The position numbers were made by a program, and so were the translations under genes. From the IMG/VR virus record IMGVR_UViG_2711768060_000001, positions 1 to 12,660 of that record: a stretch of DNA of 12,660 bases; one strand, written 5' to 3'. The notes beneath the pieces are model-generated. The model saw nothing but the letters and a program-made list of their open reading frames with translations. It was not told the origin of the DNA and ran no database searches. Of the stretch, positions 2,976 through 12,234 are shown one piece after another. Position 1 is the first letter of the stretch; each line of letters begins with the position of its first letter. This DNA comes from a virus (lineage: Duplodnaviria; Heunggongvirae; Uroviricota; Caudoviricetes).

Positions 2976-3004
2976 AATATATGCCTTTTAATCTACTTTT
3001 GCAA
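2976..3004 (-). promoter_or_regulatory. Candidate late promoter (pR'-like) overlapping the 3' end of the Q-like gene
   Basis: On minus strand: -35 TTGCAA (3004-2999), 17-nt spacer, -10 TATATT (2981-2976); predicted transcript of about 70 nt ends at the terminator 2895-2925. Confidence 0.35.
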
Positions 3005-3677
3005 TACCTTGCCTGGACAATATCGTCTTTTGTTTCGAACGTGTTCTCGCCGCAAACAATAAAGCTTCGCTATCCAGCTGATGAAAAATGTGTTTCATTG
3101 CAACCCAGTGACCAGTAAATGTTTTGGACCAGTTTTTGGTTGTTATTCCCGCCAGTAATGCCAGATCCTGGTATTCATAACCTTCTCCACCAAAAAGTTC
3201 TGCTTTTACTGCCTGCGCCGCCAGCCAGATTAATTTTTTCAGGCGTTCCCGTGTTTTCTCTGCAATTTTCCTGTTGCCAGAATGAGCCTTAAACTCTTCC
3301 CATGCCCAGCGGGTTATGGTGACCTGATACTCCCAGCAAATATTTCCGCTGTAACACCACAACAACCAGGTTTTATGAGGTTCTTCAAGAGACAGAACAG
3401 CCCGTCGCCATGAGGATGTCGAAAACTCAACCTGACTTACCAGAGGAATTGACGTCCCCTTCGCCAGCGATTGTTTCCCCGGGATTGGTGGATTATCCCG
3501 CGTGATAATTTTTCCAGTCACTTCATCGCGGTACCGGATTTTTTTACGCCTGTAACGCCCTGTATCGAACATGGCATTCTTCTGCCAGGCTTCAAGCTGA
3601 CCTTTTGTTGCCCCACTCAAATCGGCGGTGGCGATAATGAGCTGCTCACGAACAAACTGTAAATACTGGTTATTCAT
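2988..3677 (-). CDS. Putative late-gene antiterminator (Q-like)
   Basis: ORF track start at 3683 is GTG; the ATG at 3677 overlaps the rusA stop (ATGA). Product about 229 aa. Q assignment rests on synteny (after rusA and a YdfU-like gene, directly before a promoter plus terminator) and on recalled size of Qin-type Q proteins, not on a verified motif. Confidence 0.55.
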   Translation of the reverse strand: MNNQYLQFVREQLIIATADLSGATKGQLEAWQKNAMFDTGRYRRKKIRYRDEVTGKIITRDNPPIPGKQSLAKGTSIPLVSQVEFSTSSWRRAVLSLEEPHKTWLLWCYSGNICWEYQVTITRWAWEEFKAHSGNRKIAEKTRERLKKLIWLAAQAVKAELFGGEGYEYQDLALLAGITTKNWSKTFTGHWVAMKHIFHQLDSEALLFAARTRSKQKTILSRQGIAKVD

Positions 3678-4039
3678 GCGCACTCCAGCTCTGTGATTTT
3701 TATCCCCAACCGACCACCAGGAACGACCTGACCGCGCACAATATTAATTTCATCAAACTGCTCGTCGTCTATGAGCAGCCCCGCATGCGTCAGCGCATCC
3801 AGTGGTGCTTTCAGGATATTGTCCAGATCACGACGGCGTTTATCCGGTGGCTCTGCAATAATCTTTATCGCCAGCCTTCCGGACAGATTTAATTTCAGCC
3901 GCTGCTGGCGAACAATTAGCGCCACATCACGGCGATAACGCTCACCGACTTTTGATACAAAATATGTGCTGCCACGACGCCGCCAGTAAGTATTCACCGT
4001 CGGCGGATAAGGCAAAACAAATTCTATGCGTTCGGTCAT
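3674..4039 (-). CDS. rusA: RusA-family Holliday junction resolvase
   Basis: 121 aa with RusA hallmarks: LPYPPTVNTYWRRRG near the N-terminus, PDKRRRDLDNILKAPLDALTHAG, C-terminal GGRLGIKITE; about the same length as E. coli RusA. Confidence 0.9.
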   Translation of the reverse strand: MTERIEFVLPYPPTVNTYWRRRGSTYFVSKVGERYRRDVALIVRQQRLKLNLSGRLAIKIIAEPPDKRRRDLDNILKAPLDALTHAGLLIDDEQFDEINIVRGQVVPGGRLGIKITELECA

Positions 4040-5095
4040 TTATGCTTTCCACTTCAGGACACCCGAATTTCTCGCGTGCATTAAAAAACGAATCAGCAAC
4101 AACAGCTGGCTGCCGTGTTTTTCTTCAAAATCTTTTACTCCGGCGTGCAGTTCGTTATGACATTTACGGCACAGCGGAATAACAAACAAATCATCAGCCT
4201 TTGTTCCCATCCCTCCCAGTCCATGACCAATGATGTGATGCGGATCATCTGCCTGATTGCCACACGTCAGGCATTTCTGTGTTTTTACCCAGCGCGTGTA
4301 TACAGGCATCTCTTCCCGTTGTGGTTTCTGGCGCTGGAGATACTGAGCCGGTGACTCCGGATCAACGGCAATGCTGACCACCGTCTTTTCCTGTGGCGGG
4401 TTTTGCTGGTGGGCGTGAGGCAGCGGCGCAAGATTTTTTGTGCGCTGTTTCAGTATGCTGGTGGCGGTCTGTTCTCCCGGTACGATGTCGCTTTCGCGGT
4501 ACACCGAGCGAATTTTTTCCGCACGCAACCCCAGAGAACGACGTAATACTACCTCCGGTAGTGCGTCCGCCACCTGATTGCAGACCGCCCACCAGGATAA
4601 TTCAGCCAGCGATAATTCCCGCTCCTGTGTGCCATTCACTGCATGGCGTATGACGTCAATCATCCATGCTGACAGGTTTTGGTGAGCAAGTTGCCCGAGT
4701 GATTCTGAGGTCTGGTCACGCAACTGGTTGTCGCAGTGCCAGCACAATACCATCGCGCCGGTGCCGTAACGATATATGACGGTTTCACTGTGATGATAAT
4801 CGCCGTGTGGCCACTGGCAGGATTTAATATGGCGCAACAGCCAGTCAGACAATGCACCAGCACCACCGGCAGCACGAATTACCCGCTCATCGCTGAAAAA
4901 TGGCAGTAATGATTTATCTTCCGCCAGCGGCTGGCGAACGGCAGGAACGACTCCGGACGGCAGACCGCGCATACTTTTCGGTTCCGGTTCCACCAGTACT
5001 CTGCCGTTATGGAATACCTGCATGGATTCACGGCCAGGCTTAACGATAACCAGTCCGAGTTCCGGTACCAGAACAGGTCGAAGCAATACCCGCAT
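4040..5095 (-). CDS. ydfU: YdfU-like prophage protein (DUF968-like) with a C-terminal Cys/His HNH-like motif
   Basis: 351 aa; ATG at 5095 with GGAGG 5 nt upstream; C-terminus CLTCGN...DPHHIIGHGLGGMGTKADDLFVIPLCRKCHNELH. Family name recalled from Qin-prophage YdfU (similar length), not searched. Confidence 0.7.
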   Translation of the reverse strand: MRVLLRPVLVPELGLVIVKPGRESMQVFHNGRVLVEPEPKSMRGLPSGVVPAVRQPLAEDKSLLPFFSDERVIRAAGGAGALSDWLLRHIKSCQWPHGDYHHSETVIYRYGTGAMVLCWHCDNQLRDQTSESLGQLAHQNLSAWMIDVIRHAVNGTQERELSLAELSWWAVCNQVADALPEVVLRRSLGLRAEKIRSVYRESDIVPGEQTATSILKQRTKNLAPLPHAHQQNPPQEKTVVSIAVDPESPAQYLQRQKPQREEMPVYTRWVKTQKCLTCGNQADDPHHIIGHGLGGMGTKADDLFVIPLCRKCHNELHAGVKDFEEKHGSQLLLLIRFLMHARNSGVLKWKA

Positions 5096-5096
5096 G

Positions 5097-5375
5097 TTAC
5101 CTCCAGATGCGTTGCTGGAATGTGCGGGATGGACGTGGTGGGCGTTCGGAATAAGGAAGCCTGACGGAAATTATCCAGTGTCGGAAGTCAAGACTGAGGT
5201 CTTTCCTGACCTCGCGTCCGCGCCTGCGATAACACTGAATCAGCCATTCGGCCTGTTCTTCAGTGCACGGATCATGCTGGTACCAGTCAGTTTTAAAGAC
5301 GTGTGAACGCCGCCCGTACCGGATGGCAGGGTCGGCTGAGTTATCAGAATTGTGAAATTTGGTCTTGTGCGCCAT
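5097..5375 (-). CDS. Hypothetical nin-region protein; start uncertain (ATG 5375 or TTG 5429)
   Basis: ORF track start at 5429 is TTG; first ATG at 5375 gives 92 aa (MAHKTKFHNSD...). The TAA stop at 5097-5099 lies 1 nt from the start of the next gene. Confidence 0.5.
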   Translation of the reverse strand: MAHKTKFHNSDNSADPAIRYGRRSHVFKTDWYQHDPCTEEQAEWLIQCYRRRGREVRKDLSLDFRHWIISVRLPYSERPPRPSRTFQQRIWR

Positions 5376-5444
5376 CTGTTTTCTCTGCTGGCGCAGCAGG
5401 TGCCAGTTGTTCAGGCTGGCGTGCGGCAATATTGTCTCTGATTT

Positions 5445-5475
5445 CTGTTGTCGTCAACAGGCAGCGTGCTATCAT
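5445..5475 (+). promoter_or_regulatory. Candidate promoter with overlapping palindrome for the parDE-like operon
   Basis: Palindrome CTGTTG-TCGT-CAACAG (5445-5460) overlapping -35 TTGTCG (5448-5453); 16-nt spacer; -10 TATCAT (5470-5475); about 35 nt upstream of the antitoxin ATG. Confidence 0.35.
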
Positions 5476-5510
5476 CGAATAGTGTTCTATCCTACTCCGT
5501 GAGGTTTACC

Positions 5511-5768
5511 ATGCGTACAACCCAACAATTCAGCATTACATTAACTAACGAGATGGCTGACATGGTGCGCGCCCGTGTGGCTTCCGGTGCCTATGCTTCA
5601 GAAAGCGAGGTCATTCGTGAAGGGCTTCGCGCACTGAATGAGCGCGATAAAGCAATCGAAGCGTGGTTAACGCATTCAGCCGCCCCCTCTCTTGATTCTA
5701 TCCGCGAAAATCCAAACAACGGACGCTCCATTTCACAGGTTCGCGCCGCGATTCGATCCGGGAAGTAA
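5511..5768 (+). CDS. parD: ParD-family (ribbon-helix-helix) antitoxin
   Basis: ATG at 5511 with GAGG 8 nt upstream (ORF track start 5448 is a non-ATG extension). 85 aa, motif YASESEVIREGLRALNERD typical of ParD antitoxins; directly upstream of a ParE-like toxin. Confidence 0.8.
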   Translation: MRTTQQFSITLTNEMADMVRARVASGAYASESEVIREGLRALNERDKAIEAWLTHSAAPSLDSIRENPNNGRSISQVRAAIRSGK

Positions 5769-5773
5769 TCTGC

Positions 5774-6073
5774 ATGACATATGAAGTCATCATTACTCCT
5801 GAGGCCGAACAACAAATAATCAACCTGCACAGATATATAACGGAGAAAGCAGGAAGCGTCATTGCTGACAATTATGCCAATGCGCTTCTTGATTATCTTG
5901 ATGGGTTTTCTACATTCCCGCATCGGGGCAATAAACGCGATGATATTCGCCAGGGGATGCGGGTAACTCATTTCCGCCACAGAACGATTATTGCTTTTGC
6001 CGTTGATGGCAGAAAAGTCTTTATTGTCGGTATCTATCATGGTGGGCAAAGTTATGAAACCGATTTCTTATAA
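5774..6073 (+). CDS. parE: ParE-family toxin
   Basis: 99 aa, 5 nt after the antitoxin stop; ParE/RelE-fold pattern (MTYEVIITPEAEQQIINLHRYI ... RKVFIVGIYHGGQ). Confidence 0.85.
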   Translation: MTYEVIITPEAEQQIINLHRYITEKAGSVIADNYANALLDYLDGFSTFPHRGNKRDDIRQGMRVTHFRHRTIIAFAVDGRKVFIVGIYHGGQSYETDFL

Positions 6074-6156
6074 ACTTTTACCCACATCATTCCGGTGTTA
6101 GAATAAACCGTCCGCCCCCTCTCTTACTGGCGGATTCGTAGGCTATATAAATCAAA

Positions 6157-6190
6157 GATCCCGGCTCATGTTTGTGCCGGGATCTTTTTT
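6157..6190 (+). terminator. Rho-independent terminator after parE, placed between convergent genes
   Basis: Stem GATCCCGGC (6157-6165) / GCCGGGATC (6176-6184), 10-nt loop, T6 at 6185-6190. Confidence 0.6.
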
Positions 6191-6197
6191 CGGCGAT

Positions 6198-6281
6198 TTA
6201 TCCCCAGCGGCAAATCGAATACACCACCAGCGCCACAGCCATTGCGATTCCTGCCGTTGTAAATGCCTCAGGCCAGGTCAT
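6198..6281 (-). CDS. 27-aa hydrophobic single-helix peptide, translationally coupled to the upstream 301-aa gene
   Basis: Not in the ORF track (under 60 aa). ATG at 6281-6279 overlaps the TGA stop of ORF 6278-7183 (ATGA); GGAGGA lies 10 nt upstream. Translation MTWPEAFTTAGIAMAVALVVYSICRWG, TAA stop at 6200-6198. Confidence 0.35.
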   Translation of the reverse strand: MTWPEAFTTAGIAMAVALVVYSICRWG

Positions 6282-7183
6282 CGTAAAACATCCTCCACAC
6301 CAACCAGTCCGTTCTGCTTCAGATATTCCATCGCCTTATCAGGTAGATTGCTTGATTTATTGACGCTTTTTAACGAACTGGCTAATCGCTTAACCAACAT
6401 TGTTAATTCGTTAACCTGTTTTCCGGATGCTTGTGGATTGTCAGTTTTACCAGAAGTGGCGGTACAGTCGGCGTTCCCACTCTTCACCTCCTGCGGCGGC
6501 TCCGGTAGCGGCATCCAGTACAAGGCGTTCCCTAACCACGATAAAGTGCCGTCGCTCAACTCCACGTATTCCCCTTGTACCTGTCCTGCCATATACTCGC
6601 CGTGCTTTGAATAAATTAAAACCCAATCATCTTGCGCGGGAATCCGCTCACTACAGCTTATCCAACCATCCTTAGTTGCCGGGGAGCTGGTTGACGAATT
6701 CTTATTTTCCCGAAAGTTTCCGGCCTGAAACATAGCGGCGCGGTGACACCAGATAATCCAGCCAATCGCCATATCCCATGCCATGTATTCGCTACCGCCA
6801 TTTTTTGCCCTGCGGCGATCTACAGAATCCCCGAAATGCTTCTCCATAAATAACTCATAGGCAGCCCGTTCATCCGGCACTACCAGCATTGGCGGCGTGG
6901 CGTATAGCTTACGGGTCTGAACACCTGCCCCCTGGCATTTCTCTTCCTCAACAAATCTTTCGAAAGCATATTCCCCGCAATCTTCCCATTCTCCCCATTC
7001 ATCATATTCTGCATCCCACTGGCGATACTGATATGCCACCGGTTCTGCTACCAGCGATGCCAGCGCGATACGAAACACATTAGCAAGCAGGCTATTTGAA
7101 GATTGGTTATCGTGCGCCGCGTCGCTCAGGAAGCCAGTGATGAACGATTTAATCTCCACGTTTTTTCTGGTAATAGTGGTCAT
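6278..7183 (-). CDS. Hypothetical prophage protein (301 aa); C-terminal half may be DUF551-like
   Basis: ATG at 7183 with GAGGA 8 nt upstream; start overlaps the stop of the upstream 69-aa ORF (ATGA). Trp/acidic-rich middle (YQYRQWDAEYDEWGEWEDCGEY); the domain guess is from memory and low confidence. Confidence 0.75.
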   Translation of the reverse strand: MTTITRKNVEIKSFITGFLSDAAHDNQSSNSLLANVFRIALASLVAEPVAYQYRQWDAEYDEWGEWEDCGEYAFERFVEEEKCQGAGVQTRKLYATPPMLVVPDERAAYELFMEKHFGDSVDRRRAKNGGSEYMAWDMAIGWIIWCHRAAMFQAGNFRENKNSSTSSPATKDGWISCSERIPAQDDWVLIYSKHGEYMAGQVQGEYVELSDGTLSWLGNALYWMPLPEPPQEVKSGNADCTATSGKTDNPQASGKQVNELTMLVKRLASSLKSVNKSSNLPDKAMEYLKQNGLVGVEDVLR

Positions 7184-8970: not shown

Positions 8971-9636
8971 TCAAACAAACCCAGCCGCTTTCCGGCGTTC
9001 ATATTCCTGTTTCAGCAACTCAATTGGAGTTGGCCCCGACGGGCGTTCTGGTGCAGCCAGTTGCCGCCGTACGGGCGGAACACTGAAGCCGTCACCAACA
9101 TGCTTTGCCCATTTCGCCAGTTGCCGTTCTGCAAGTCGTTTTAACTCCCCTTCGGTCATCTGGCGCTCAATCCCCTTTGAACGCATCTCGAGGCAAATGT
9201 GATACAGCACAGGCTGAGACCACGGGTATTTATCGCTTCCGTCGTATCGCCAGGACTCGTTGCGCCAGCGGCGGTACTCCTCCATCACGGCATCCACAGT
9301 CAAACCAAACGGATTTGCCCCACTTTCCGAAATCAACGCCACAAACTCTGCCAGGTCAGGAGGCCATGTTTCACCCGCCCGACAACGCTCCATGCACTGG
9401 CGGCAGACCTGCCGGATTTGCTGCTCAGTCATCGCGCCAATCTGTGCAATCCAGAGCTTCGAAGGTGCGGCCCCGTTCTTCTGAGTCCAGCGGTTCGAAT
9501 AAACCTCCCCCATGAGTTCCCACAGCTTCCACGCCGTTTCCGTCGCTGATAAATCCGTTTTCACGTTCCCACTGCTCACGTGCTGCCCGAATTTCCTGAA
9601 CTGCCCGTGATGCGGTGCCACCTGGCGTTGCTGCAT
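8971..9636 (-). CDS. Lambda-P-like replication protein (helicase loader)
   Basis: 221 aa; ATG at 9636 with AAGGGGGTGA SD. Segments such as [27 protein letters not shown] and [20 protein letters not shown] parallel recalled lambda P segments (FVAWCREE, YPWKSNAHYWLVTNL, TDAELRRKAADELVHMTARI). Overlaps the O-like ORF by 212 nt in another frame. Confidence 0.75.
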
Positions 9637-10465
9637 GGCTCACCCCCTTGCTGACTGGTTTAACCTGCGCCCTGACGTGATTTACGTGACGGGCGAATTT
9701 CTGCTCCCACTGAACCTGCGTGAAAACTTTCCCCTCCGCTGCCCAGTAGTCCCGGAAGGCGGCAAGTTCAGCAGGTGTAAATTCCGGCTCCGGCAGAGCC
9801 ACTCCCCACAGTGCAGCCCGTTGTCGGAAATCGGGCGACGGATTCCAGCCGTCGGTCATCGGAAATTTTCCGATGGGTTCGCTCAGACCTTCCAGGTAAT
9901 CAGGTTCCGCTGCCTGCAACGGCGCGCCATTCGACTCACTGGTCGGAGCGATCTCGCGCACGCGCGCGCTATGTGTGGGGTTTAATTCTTTATCTGTATC
10001 TGTATCTGTCGTGACTCGTCGTGACATGTCGTGACATATGCGTGACTCGTCGTGACATTCCTCATTCTGTTTTCGTAATTTTTCCCTCTCACGCTGCGCT
10101 CTCTTGCGCTCTGCCGGGGATTTCGCGGTTTGAGAAACGTTACCGTTGTCCTCTTTCAGTACCTGGCGTTTTTCCCATCCAGTGATTAAATCTCCATCAA
10201 GCACCCGCCCCTGCATTGCTTGCAAAATTGAATCAATTACGTCTTCCGTCACATCAAGCGCACTTGCTAAATCTTCCGTCGTGACATCAATGTGACCCCG
10301 TAGTGACACGCCGTGACATGTCGTGACATTTCGTGACGCGCTAACCAGAAGGTGGATATACACCGCCATCACTGTTGCAATCGGCTGTCCTGACACCCTT
10401 GAAATTGTTCGCCACTTAGGGTCATTTGGCATGTCATGCCATAATCTGAGCCAGGCGTTGGCCAT
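9425..10465 (-). CDS. Replication initiator (lambda-O-like role) with iteron arrays embedded in its coding sequence
   Basis: ORF track start 10471 is GTG; ATG at 10465 has AGAGGTGA SD. Positioned directly upstream of the P-like gene. Contains two arrays of GTGAC-core direct repeats and a (TD)3 linker encoded by (TATCTG)3. Confidence 0.7.
   Translation of the reverse strand: MANAWLRLWHDMPNDPKWRTISRVSGQPIATVMAVYIHLLVSASRNVTTCHGVSLRGHIDVTTEDLASALDVTEDVIDSILQAMQGRVLDGDLITGWEKRQVLKEDNGNVSQTAKSPAERKRAQREREKLRKQNEECHDESRICHDMSRRVTTDTDTDKELNPTHSARVREIAPTSESNGAPLQAAEPDYLEGLSEPIGKFPMTDGWNPSPDFRQRAALWGVALPEPEFTPAELAAFRDYWAAEGKVFTQVQWEQKFARHVNHVRAQVKPVSKGVSHAATPGGTASRAVQEIRAAREQWERENGFISDGNGVEAVGTHGGGLFEPLDSEERGRTFEALDCTDWRDD
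9991..10056. repeat. (TATCTG)x3 tandem repeat followed by iteron array A: five (T)CGTGAC repeats at 10-11 bp spacing
   Basis: TATCTG x3 at 9991-10008; GTGAC cores at 10011, 10021, 10031, 10042 and 10052. An alternating CG tract (9951-9970) lies adjacent. Confidence 0.65.
10278..10337. repeat. Iteron array B: six GTGAC-core direct repeats at 10-11 bp spacing
   Basis: GTGAC at 10281, 10292, 10303, 10313, 10323 and 10333, same orientation as array A and about 225 bp from it; inside the N-terminal coding region of the O-like gene. Confidence 0.6.
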
Positions 10466-10536
10466 ACTCACCTCTTCTGATACCGAATCTTTTTACTCAC
10501 GAGTTTCCGGAAGCGATCCGGTATGAATATTGTCAG

Positions 10537-10962
10537 TCAATGTACCGCCACAGCATTTCCTGCCGGGCCACCACGATTCATCTGATCGAACAAAGTGATC
10601 GCTGATGCAACAAACTCGTCGATATCTTTCACCAGGCGCTCCCGTCGCTCGACAAGCTCCCGGTGATATTCCGAACTGTGGCTGCGCATCCAGGCCACCA
10701 GCGGAGGTGGCATTGCCTTTTCGATCGCTGGTAACAGCGCCTGAATTTTTTCAACAGCATCAGGAGTGTCTTTATCTAGCCAACGGAAAATCTTTTGGGT
10801 GTTGAGATAAAGTGCGTTGTGCTTGCTGTCGTTATGCAGAACCGGAAACGTCATACCCAGCTCAAAATAAGCCCTGGTTATTTCAGCTGCCGGAACTTTT
10901 TCACCGTCCGGATGCGCCCAGGCATTCATCGCCATGCGGATGTGTTCATGCTTGATTTTCAT
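10537..10962 (-). CDS. ydaT: YdaT-like protein (Rac prophage family; CII-like, toxic on derepression)
   Basis: 141 aa; begins MKIKHEHI and ends ...VH like recalled Rac YdaT; its start overlaps the stop of the upstream YdaS-like gene. Confidence 0.75.
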   Translation of the reverse strand: MKIKHEHIRMAMNAWAHPDGEKVPAAEITRAYFELGMTFPVLHNDSKHNALYLNTQKIFRWLDKDTPDAVEKIQALLPAIEKAMPPPLVAWMRSHSSEYHRELVERRERLVKDIDEFVASAITLFDQMNRGGPAGNAVAVH

Positions 10963-11218
10963 GAATCAACTCCGGCGCATTTGATGTGTTAGTCTTACAT
11001 CCAACAGGTAAACCGTCGGTTGGGTTAGGATAAATATCAGGGCGAATTTCATGCGGGGTAACTTCCCACTTCATTAACTGGCATAACGGAATTACCTGCT
11101 TTGGGGGAACGCCAAAGCTAAACCATTGCCAAACGGTCTGTTGAGCGACCCCCATATAGCGACCTATTTCAGCTTGAGTGTATTTCTGCCTAATTTTTTC
11201 GCGAGTGCTATCTAGCAT
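10946..11218 (-). CDS. ydaS: YdaS-like Cro-type HTH protein
   Basis: ATG at 11218 with GAGGAGGG SD (ORF track start 11272 is an upstream extension); motif GVAQQTVWQWFSFGVPPKQV...IRPD; divergent from the repressor gene. Confidence 0.7.
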   Translation of the reverse strand: MLDSTREKIRQKYTQAEIGRYMGVAQQTVWQWFSFGVPPKQVIPLCQLMKWEVTPHEIRPDIYPNPTDGLPVGCKTNTSNAPELIHENQA

Positions 11219-11253
11219 TTTGCCCTCCTCTGAAAACGATAAACAAAGCCTAC

Positions 11254-11288
11254 AATAAAAAACTGTATGCAATCAACAGTTTTTTATT
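11254..11288. promoter_or_regulatory. Operator-like perfect palindrome AATAAAAAACTGT-N9-ACAGTTTTTTATT in the divergent promoter region
   Basis: 13-bp arms at 11254-11266 and 11276-11288 are exact reverse complements; lies between the YdaS-like and repressor genes; the same CTGT/ACAG core recurs at 12288-12324. Confidence 0.5.
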
Positions 11289-11326: not shown

Positions 11327-11728
11327 ATGATGAACGCCCTAGAAGTATCTATGTACAGAATCAGCAAGCTTCTTCAGGAAACTGGATGGAGCCAGGCTGA
11401 ACTTGCCCGTAGAATTGGTGTGACACAACAAACTGTTCAACAATGGGTCAGCGGTAAGGCCACACCTAAAGCCTCAAGTTTGGATAAACTGGTTGAGGTT
11501 ACAGGGCATCCATTGCATTGGTTTTTATTGCCTCCAGAAGAGGGGGAGCAAATTTTCACCCCTGACACGATGAAAATTGGTCCTCGCCAACGCGAACTGC
11601 TCCAAGCTTTTAGTGCGTTTCCAGAGGAAGACCAAGAAAAAATGCTTCAAGAAATCAAAGACAAGAAAAAATCAATGGAAGAAACCATTGCCCGGTGGTT
11701 GGCGGCACAAAAAAGCCGCCGGGCGTGA
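11327..11728 (+). CDS. Prophage repressor, XRE/CI-type HTH, lacking a LexA-like S24 protease domain (RacR-like role)
   Basis: 133 aa; N-terminal HTH (SQAELARRIGVTQQTVQQWVSGKATP); too short for a C-terminal autocleavage domain; divergent from YdaS-like; no SD, with -10-like TAAAAT (11315-11320) ending 6 nt before the ATG. Confidence 0.8.
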   Translation: MMNALEVSMYRISKLLQETGWSQAELARRIGVTQQTVQQWVSGKATPKASSLDKLVEVTGHPLHWFLLPPEEGEQIFTPDTMKIGPRQRELLQAFSAFPEEDQEKMLQEIKDKKKSMEETIARWLAAQKSRRA

Positions 11729-11755: not shown

Positions 11756-11947
11756 ATGAATACAGCCCTTTCTCCGATAGTTTCAGAATTCGAAACTACC
11801 GAACAAGAAAACAGTTACAACGAATGGTTGCGCGCTAAAGTGGCGTTAAGCCTTGCAGACCCTCGCCCCGCAATTCCACATGACGAGGTAATGGCTGAAA
11901 TGGAAAATCTTATTGCTCAAATTGCTGCAACTAACAGGAGCGAGTAA
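11756..11947 (+). CDS. Putative antitoxin of a RelE/ParE-type toxin-antitoxin pair
   Basis: 63 aa; GAGGAG SD; stop overlaps the start of the downstream toxin (TAATG). Assignment mainly by genetic context. Confidence 0.65.
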   Translation: MNTALSPIVSEFETTEQENSYNEWLRAKVALSLADPRPAIPHDEVMAEMENLIAQIAATNRSE

Positions 11948-12234
11948 TGTTACCCATTTTATGGCTACCATCTGCTCGCGATGATTTGCGTCAGATCGTA
12001 ACCTATATTGCTAAGGAAAACATTCCTGCAGCACGCAGACTAAAAATACGTATTGAAACGTCTGTTTTAGCCCTCTCTGAGCATCCATATCTATATCCGC
12101 TAAGTGATCGAGTATCCGGTTTGCGGGAAATTGTGGTTCACCCTAATTATATCGTGTTGTACCGAGTAGCAACTTCAAGCATTGAAATTGCGAATATTGT
12201 GCATGCCCGTCGACAATTTCCCTTCTCTATCTGA
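11947..12234 (+). CDS. RelE/ParE-superfamily toxin
   Basis: 95 aa; MLPILWLPSARDDLRQIVTYIAKENIPAARRL...EIVVHPNYIVLYRV...IEIANIVHARR fits the RelE/ParE pattern; translationally coupled to the antitoxin. Confidence 0.8.
   Translation: MLPILWLPSARDDLRQIVTYIAKENIPAARRLKIRIETSVLALSEHPYLYPLSDRVSGLREIVVHPNYIVLYRVATSSIEIANIVHARRQFPFSI

Follow-up and report, generated by a model that had tools for sequence, protein, structure and literature searches.

Canonical ParD/ParE modules are toxin-antitoxin (TA) systems of type II with a simple layout. In parDE of RK2, ParD1-ParE1 of Caulobacter (3KXE), ParDE1 of M. tuberculosis (8C24), ParDE2 of V. cholerae (7R5A) and ParDE of Mesorhizobium (5CEG, 6X0A), an antitoxin of about 85 amino acids (aa) with a ribbon-helix-helix (RHH) domain is encoded upstream of, and almost contiguous with, a toxin of about 100 aa. 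The canonical target of ParE is DNA gyrase, and gyrase inhibition is heterogeneous within the family. We analyzed a stretch of 12,660 nucleotides from the virus record IMGVR_UViG_2711768060_000001 (in the following called the window). It corresponds to the early region of an E. coli-type lambdoid prophage resembling Rac and Qin and carries a gene pair with the same layout. In comparison to the canonical modules, the clade of this pair is prophage-borne instead of plasmid-borne, is found mostly in Enterobacterales and shares 14–24% identity with the solved ParEs. Positions 5428–6196 very probably represent a self-contained type II parDE cassette that replaces the hok/sok locus (hokD) in a slot of variable cargo, with the nin genes on one side and the 92-aa gene, DUF968, rusA and Q on the other, and that would work as a standard TA system.

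Several other described systems come close to this locus. The moron concept of Hendrix and co-workers refers to an autonomous unit of promoter, gene(s) and terminator in lambdoid phages. The parDE unit resembles morons as it lies between conserved phage genes and is present in some relatives only; in contrast to morons that are simple additions, it replaces another TA locus and brings along half of the isrK promoter. In prophage Qin of K-12, this slot, on the upstream side of the 92-aa gene and ydfU (DUF968), is filled by hokD/sokD and relBE-hokD, which are TA cargo as well. However, hok/sok is a type I system, whose antitoxin is an RNA, and runs in the direction of the phage operon, relBE codes for an mRNA interferase, and neither shows sequence similarity to parDE. 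The annotation of K-12 leaves the 92-aa gene uncalled, and in K-12 as well as in strain 20AR0354 rem is located between this gene and hokD. A ParE-fold toxin in the same type of lambdoid prophage is also encoded by paaR2-paaA2-parE2 of O157:H7 CP-933P (5CW7). This system differs in having three components, with a disordered PaaA2 lacking a DNA-binding domain and a separate regulator that is the prophage repressor (PMC8630535). Finally, PfiT/PfiA of Pf4 from P. aeruginosa (9W3A) and PrpT/PrpA (7YCS), which are among the top fold matches of the toxin, are located on mobile elements and pair a ParE-fold toxin with an RHH antitoxin. They differ by an identity of only ~17% and by host and element, and the roles reported for them, which concern phage production and plasmid replication, are not transferable by likeness alone.

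Identity and fold of ParD and ParE

The antitoxin gene parD (5511–5768, plus strand) encodes an RHH protein of 85 aa. The listed open reading frame (ORF) at 5448–5768 opens at an upstream TTG; the ATG at 5511 is preceded by a GAGG ribosome-binding site. After a gap of 5 nt behind the parD stop codon follows parE (5774–6073, plus strand), which encodes a ParE-fold toxin of 99 aa. This pairing is conserved in loci from E. coli, Yersinia and Enterobacter. ParD matches the Pfam family ParD_antitoxin PF03693 (E 1.6e-7, 32.1 bits, cutoff 21) and TIGR02606 (53.8 bits, cutoff 46.2), and its residues 6–51 match the ParD structures 3KXE, 7YCV, 7B22 and 8C24 in the PDB. ParE matches PF05016 over residues 5–94 of 99 (E 2.1e-10, 41.5 bits, cutoff 23); no NCBIfam equivalog was matched. 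Both proteins also have counterparts in the 'moron' category of PHROG (6494, antitoxin, 1.7e-56; 5232, toxin, 3.9e-43). The initial annotation of the window had proposed a ParD/ParE pair on the opposite strand, and the family matches above cutoff together with the plus-strand position of both genes within a minus-strand operon bear this out.

The family PF05016 spans ParE as well as RelE toxins, and we used profile and fold comparisons to separate the two. A profile built from 15 ParE homologues retrieved ParE chains only when compared to the PDB (6X0A, 5CEG, 7YCS, 8C24). The AlphaFold2 model of the toxin (mean confidence, pLDDT, 82.7) contains E4–7, H9–26, H28–46, E61–67, E71–78 and E81–89 (E, strand; H, helix), i.e. 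a predicted topology of one strand, a long helical hairpin and a three-stranded sheet. When this model was compared to the PDB with Foldseek, ranks 1–22 were all ParE-type toxins (TM 0.66–0.74), and the ribonuclease toxins RelE, YoeB, YafQ and HigB ranked lower (TM 0.40–0.55). The modeled fold thus places the 99-aa toxin in the ParE branch rather than among the RelE/YoeB/YafQ ribonucleases. The antitoxin is not of the PaaA type: it could not be aligned with PaaA2, and there is no third gene at the pair.

The clade is small: 35 clusters were found, whose members belong to E. coli, Salmonella, Yersinia, Enterobacter and Erwinia and, in one case, to Desulfovibrio. Across all 15 aligned toxins 23 residues are invariant. 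Between parD and its Yersinia copy we counted 40 synonymous and 18 non-synonymous codon changes; the ORFs of both genes are intact in every full copy examined, and the ParD protein is identical in three of the loci compared (L001, L002, L004). On the level of sequence, both genes are intact and under purifying selection. The pair as such is already known: in a near-identical locus the proteins WP_001260977.1 and WP_001297793.1 are listed by RefSeq as ParD antitoxin and RelE/ParE toxin, and the record of phage ArgO145 labels its pair as a toxin-antitoxin system.

Cassette boundaries and contents of the slot

The relatives used for comparison share the flanks of the pair, with DUF968 and the 92-aa gene on one side and a 27-aa ORF and the nin genes on the other. 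The initial annotation had suggested comparing related prophages for the presence of the pair, and this comparison revealed that 5428–6196 is present or absent with sharp edges. In the hokD-type loci L003 and L007–L012 homology to the window is lost at 5421–5426, and L003 regains it at 6197. Conversely, homology of the Shiga toxin (Stx) phages ArgO145 (L002) and Stx2a_JNE (L005) starts at 5428. The homology breaks thus delimit an exchangeable plus-strand cassette of 769 bp (5428–6196), which comprises the control region, parD, parE, the 3' untranslated region (UTR) and the terminator.

All of the eight sampled related prophages without ParDE (L003, L006–L012) contain hokD in the slot. It is the only content in two strains of the O157/uropathogenic type and in an O141:H4 strain, and is accompanied by relBE (and rem) in Qin of K-12 and in strain 20AR0354. 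In the remaining cases hokD was found together with an AbiH-family gene, with QueH, or with a pair of a helix-turn-helix (HTH) gene and a gene of unknown type. The slot (5376–5427/6197–6281), which adjoins the 92-aa gene on its upstream side, is a hot-spot for cargo in Rac/Qin-like prophages. A tblastn search with HokD gave no match in the window and a 100% match in L003, which served as control. In order to count the two arrangements, queries of 201 nt spanning the junctions were compared to 5426 complete E. coli genomes: the junction between flank and ParDE was present in 328 genomes and the junction between flank and hokD in at least 2395, making the hokD allele about 7 times more common. 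According to these counts the slot is usually occupied by hok/sok, with the parDE unit as a minority allele.

The cassette has replaced a hok/sok locus and represents a swap of one TA system for another. Of the self-contained insertion that had been proposed for the pair, the cassette therefore stands, whereas a plain insertion does not. The proposed independent acquisition is supported by the comparison, as related prophages carry hokD at the slot and the block starting at 5428 recurs in ArgO145, with a Yersinia homologue in an equivalent place. For relBE and hokD of Qin a horizontal acquisition has been argued as well (PMC6379469). We also considered a plasmid origin of the cassette. The sole full-length match in a plasmid collection was an E. 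coli record of 1.41 Mb, which is likely of chromosomal nature, and the other matches in this collection were weak, partial and confined to the RHH region of parD, so this origin was rejected.

Two further observations were made in the compared loci. In L001 an IS903B insertion splits a gene located downstream of Q, and several pseudogenes lie close to the cassette. L003 (O141:H4 strain P13-6) contains an additional toxin gene of the PemK/MazF family just downstream of Q (4284–4685, minus strand), which indicates that these prophages carry TA cargo in several slots.

Control region upstream of parD

Upstream of parD, consensus scan and conservation identified a candidate promoter on the plus strand (5448–5475), which consists of the -35 hexamer TTGTCG, a 16-nt spacer and the TG-extended -10 hexamer TATCAT. 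It is a candidate only, and its real support is conservation across genera and not the scan. Positions -65 to -1 of parD are 69–74% identical to the homologues from Yersinia and Enterobacter, compared to 43% at the third codon positions of parD and 47–57% further upstream. GTGCTA and a TAnnnT hexamer are retained in the copies from E. coli, Yersinia and Enterobacter. In an alignment of seven upstream sequences the invariant blocks are GTCGTCAA, GTGCTA and AATAGTGTTCnATCCTACT. Judged by invariant alignment columns the most conserved non-coding block lies at 5466–5497 (plus strand); it extends from GTGCTA to AATAGTGTTCtATCCTACT, contains CTAT/ATAG half-sites and is the best candidate for a ParD operator or an element of the 5' UTR.

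The initial annotation had assigned a promoter together with a palindromic operator to 5445–5475. The promoter is retained as a conserved candidate, the operator is not. Direct reading of the sequence yields the palindrome CTGTTG-TCGT-CAACAG (CTGTTGTCGTCAACAG, 5445–5460), whose arms measure 6 bp each, so that it is absent from the output of the repeat search. Its core GTCGTCAA is invariant across genera; the symmetry is lost in Yersinia and Enterobacter, and we rejected the palindrome as an operator because this symmetry is not conserved. Most simply, the palindrome can be read as two overlapping -35 hexamers of divergent orientation, TTGTCG for parD and TTGACG for a leftward element. The latter was found by scanning on the minus strand (5428–5457) and combines the -35 hexamer TTGACG (5457–5452), an 18-nt spacer and the -10 hexamer AATATT (5433–5428). 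This promoter-like element appears to be a relic of the isrK promoter and may be active in the window, where it faces the 92-aa, DUF968, rusA and Q genes.

Terminator and 3' UTR

The pair has its own terminator, as had been proposed: repeat arms and folding define a strong intrinsic hairpin followed by T6 at 6154–6192. Its arms of 15 nt (6154–6168 and 6173–6187) are 93% complementary, and its folding free energy is -24.6 kcal/mol (z -5.3), which was not reached by any of 200 shuffled sequences. On the minus strand the hairpin folds nearly as well (-23.0 kcal/mol, z -7.0) and is followed by a T-rich tail. The terminator therefore looks bidirectional and could stop transcription both ways. It is present in the ParDE copies L001, L002 and L004 and missing at the equivalent place in the hokD variant L003.

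Between parE and the terminator, the 3' UTR contains a stem-loop on the plus strand with a 7-bp stem and a C/U-rich loop of 12 nt (6110–6135); the fold of 6108–6195 has a free energy of -33.8 kcal/mol (z -4.6). The region 6077–6192 (plus strand) has a layout that resembles a small RNA (sRNA), with a promoter-like TTTACC-16-TAGAAT with TG, the stem-loop, an A/U-rich linker and the terminator. Two known sRNAs were considered and rejected. The anti-hemB sRNA (RF02837) reached 23 bits over 6108–6190, compared to a gathering threshold of 49.5, and the resemblance is one of layout only; the prophage Pas sRNA, described in a preprint, belongs to other loci downstream of Q. At gathering threshold Rfam detected nothing in the whole window except two tRNAs. 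In addition we noticed an exact direct repeat of 14 nt on the plus strand, CCGCCCCCTCTCTT, with one copy in parD (5680–5693) and one in the 3' UTR stem-loop (6112–6125). Two matches were obtained in none of 200 shuffles. We rejected the idea that the repeat is a scar of deletion or duplication, since the toxin-less Stx2a_JNE copies break at 5787 and not at the repeat, and since L001 and L004 do not strictly conserve it.

The same unit next to isrK and orphan parD genes

The parDE unit is also found outside the nin slot. In the Stx2a phage ArgO145 the block begins exactly at the equivalent of 5428; it is located in the leftward early region between the antirepressor gene and ea22-type genes and is antisense to its neighbors. 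Two Yersinia prophages (L013, L014) carry the homologous pair in an equivalent place, again antisense to the neighboring genes. The Enterobacter copy is located on an island with an integrase and IS66 and has no isrK. Rfam searches revealed that in the Stx phages of E. coli as well as in the Yersinia prophages the parD unit abuts, in divergent orientation, a series of isrK, C4 antisense RNA and antirepressor gene (isrK 53–74 bits with a gathering threshold of 50; C4 antisense RNA 70–79 bits). The loci of the isrK/C4 side are L002 4059–4241, L005 2812–2994, L013 4456–4643 and L014 4461–4643. This type of isrK-C4-antirepressor operon has been characterised in Gifsy-1 (PMC4825925). A tRNA or att remnant had been considered next to the cassette in Stx phages on account of the motif GGTTCGAATCC; ARAGORN found nothing there, and Rfam identified the isrK sRNA instead.

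In L002 and L013 the first position of the isrK model is reached 7 nt past the minus-strand hexamer TATATT, which is separated by an 18-nt spacer from TTGACG. The window retains the leftward hexamers (TTGACG, AATATT) without isrK, and the left end of the cassette cuts the isrK promoter between the -10 hexamer and the start site. Because the position next to isrK is shared across genera and the left end cuts this promoter, the isrK-adjacent position is probably the older one and the copy in the nin slot derived.

Orphan parD genes were observed in Stx2a_JNE122398 (L005, 3084–3341) and in about 50 other records of Stx-converting phages. The orphan parD has 86% nucleotide identity, and its promoter region is intact and 92% identical. 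At this locus parE is truncated behind codon 5 (MAYEVPH*), and a lipoprotein-like ORF and an HTH ORF of the HigA-like type come next. The RHH codons 1–48 of the orphan contain 9 synonymous and no non-synonymous changes, compared to 11 and 12, respectively, in the toxin-binding tail. Orphan ParD may owe its retention to DNA binding or to a function as anti-toxin decoy.

The second ParE module

A second RelE/ParE-type pair within 7 kb had been part of the initial annotation. Two ParE modules do occur in the window, the second starting 5.7 kb from parD/parE, but the latter is a three-gene operon of a different kind and not a simple pair. It consists, all on the plus strand, of an HTH gene of the HTH_3/DicA-like type (11327–11728), a PaaA2-family antitoxin gene (11756–11947; PF21217, 8.6e-22, 77.3 bits, cutoff 27) and a gene for a ParE2-like toxin (11947–12234; ParE2 of PDB 5CW7, E 5.5e-37). 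This is a paaR-paaA-parE (paaR2-paaA2-parE2) operon, which lies within the immunity region and is not autonomous. For CP-933P it has been shown that PaaR2 acts as an analogue of CI and that the immunity region includes the operon (PMC8630535). BLASTP of toxin against toxin gave nothing significant (best E 0.037 over 9 residues, ~19% over a longer stretch), and no alignment was obtained between the two antitoxins. Cross-neutralisation between the modules therefore seems unlikely from their sequences. Both modules also occur together in E. coli strain CFSAN004176.

Gene order in the window

Apart from parD and parE, every credible gene between 2577 and 10962 is located on the minus strand, with an early operon running from the Cro-like gene to Q, and RefSeq gives the same strand layout for L001 and L004, two near-identical loci. 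The series comprises a Cro-like regulator (10946–11272), a YdaT/cII-like gene (10537–10962), an O-like (9425–10471) and a P-like replication gene (8971–9636), several small genes of the nin/ea22 type in a row between the P-like gene and the DUF551 gene, and the DUF551 gene itself (6278–7183). On the other side of the cassette follow the 92-aa gene (5097–5375), DUF968/ydfU (4040–5095), rusA (RusA, 3674–4039), Q (2988–3683), a gene downstream of Q (2577–2894) and a DNA methyltransferase gene (1377–2423), likewise on the minus strand. Rfam places the two tRNA genes at 1049–1199. Between Q and the gene downstream of it we observed a strong, bidirectional terminator-like hairpin, AAAAAACCTG...CAGGTTTTTT, at 2898–2925.

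The 27-aa ORF, which lacks an annotation, encodes a hydrophobic peptide, MTWPEAFTTAGIAMAVALVVYSICRWG (6198–6281, minus strand), and belongs to the backbone flank outside the cassette. Its ATG overlaps the stop codon of the DUF551 gene (ATGA), and as a protein it is conserved in L001, L002 (ArgO145) and L004 and also in the hokD-type L003, where it starts with GTG; NCBIfam, the sole library scanned, gave no match. At most 66% of the window is covered by any complete E. coli genome and 41% by any phage record, and by sequence the window is a mosaic. The cassette is 99.9% identical to E. coli strain T309.Ta3.

Proposed mechanism and alternative explanations

What this analysis shows is the identity of the two genes, a ParE-type fold of the modeled toxin, the boundaries of the cassette, its presence/absence polymorphism and the conservation of the control region. 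In the mechanism we propose, a sigma-70 promoter with extended -10 (~5448–5475) would drive rightward transcription of parD and parE, opposite in direction to the phage early operon. The parDE transcript would end at the hairpin and T6, which would probably also block incoming antisense transcription. By analogy to the family, ParD dimers would bind the control region via the N-terminal RHH domain and repress the operon, and the C-terminal tail of ParD would wrap and neutralise ParE. Upon loss of the cassette or the prophage segment, or if synthesis of ParD is halted, labile ParD would decay and ParE would poison the cell. Retention of the prophage segment would be favoured, and an interference with other phages is conceivable. 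Autoregulation, lability of the antitoxin, gyrase as target and the biological role are what knowledge of the family would lead us to expect.

Several points weigh against this interpretation. The toxin is only 14–24% identical to any solved ParE, so its biochemical target cannot be read from the sequence; gyrase is a presumed target, and the relation of the nearby ParE2 family to gyrase is unclear. The number of hits in the promoter scan is at chance level (3 found, 2.4 expected), and no ParD operator was identified, as symmetry alone could not define one. Neither protein matched a PADLOC defence model. In the literature we found no work on expression, toxicity or neutralisation for the clade, and none on the toxin-antitoxin genes of ArgO145 or on the exact pair.

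We compared the addiction-type TA cassette with other explanations. That the cassette serves mainly in anti-phage defence, by abortive infection or superinfection exclusion, and that the slot is a hot-spot for defence, is possible but rather doubtful. In other prophages the slot holds hokD with an AbiH-family gene, with relBE or with the HTH/unknown pair, and the hok/sok locus of prophage Sp5 affects phage release (PMC8621323). However, the PADLOC models remained without a match, and the contents of the slot are mostly TA loci, which are equally compatible with addiction. It is extremely improbable that the pair is ancestral in the nin region and transcribed with, or dependent on, the flanking phage genes, a scenario which the initial annotation had named as one that would refute its proposal. 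The tight packing between phage genes and the mild change in GC content (0.44–0.51 versus 0.50–0.55) would fit such an origin, but it is contradicted by the opposite strand, the sharp homology breaks at 5427/5428 and 6196/6197, the hokD allele, which prevails at the junction, and the occurrence of the block in other contexts in other phages. An inert or decaying remnant is hardly more credible. Many such prophages are cryptic, and L001 shows an IS insertion and pseudogenes close to the cassette. Yet the ORFs are intact in all full copies, with a strong synonymous excess in comparison to Yersinia, and real decay is obvious where it is present, as in the truncated parE of Stx2a_JNE.

A further explanation, which we regard as unlikely, assigns ParD a role mainly as a transcription factor of a bidirectional control region. 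In the older context it would regulate the divergent isrK-C4-antirepressor operon and link antitoxin stability to prophage induction, and the leftover leftward promoter of the window would point at the 92-aa, DUF968, rusA and Q genes. This would agree with the divergent position of parD right next to isrK, which is seen in Stx phages of E. coli and in prophages of Yersinia, with the overlap of the -35 hexamers and the invariance of GTCGTCAA, and with the orphan ParDs of Stx2a phages, which keep the promoter and whose RHH codons are free of non-synonymous change. On the other hand, the -35 hexamer of isrK alone explains the conservation of GTCGTCAA, the -10 hexamer in the window is weaker (AATATT) and isrK absent, and the Enterobacter copies occur without isrK. 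Similarly, and with a somewhat slimmer chance, the control region of ~90 nt could be a bidirectional switch: ParD, including its orphan copies, would repress its own and the divergent isrK promoter, proteolysis of ParD would feed prophage induction, and in the window the relic promoter would put the 92-aa, DUF968, rusA and Q genes under the same control.

Significance of the cassette

ParDE modules are common in prophages and the pair is already named in RefSeq and PHROGs; as a TA system, the parDE cassette is an ordinary find. Its exact boundaries are useful for moving or deleting the unit. The comparison further reveals one fixed slot of Rac/Qin-like prophages in which TA loci of type I (hok/sok) and type II (relBE, parDE) and Abi-like genes interchange, and a ParDE clade that travels with half of the isrK promoter. 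If ParD should indeed control the antirepressor operon of Stx phages, which is a hypothesis, this would bear on the RecA-independent induction of Shiga-toxin prophages.

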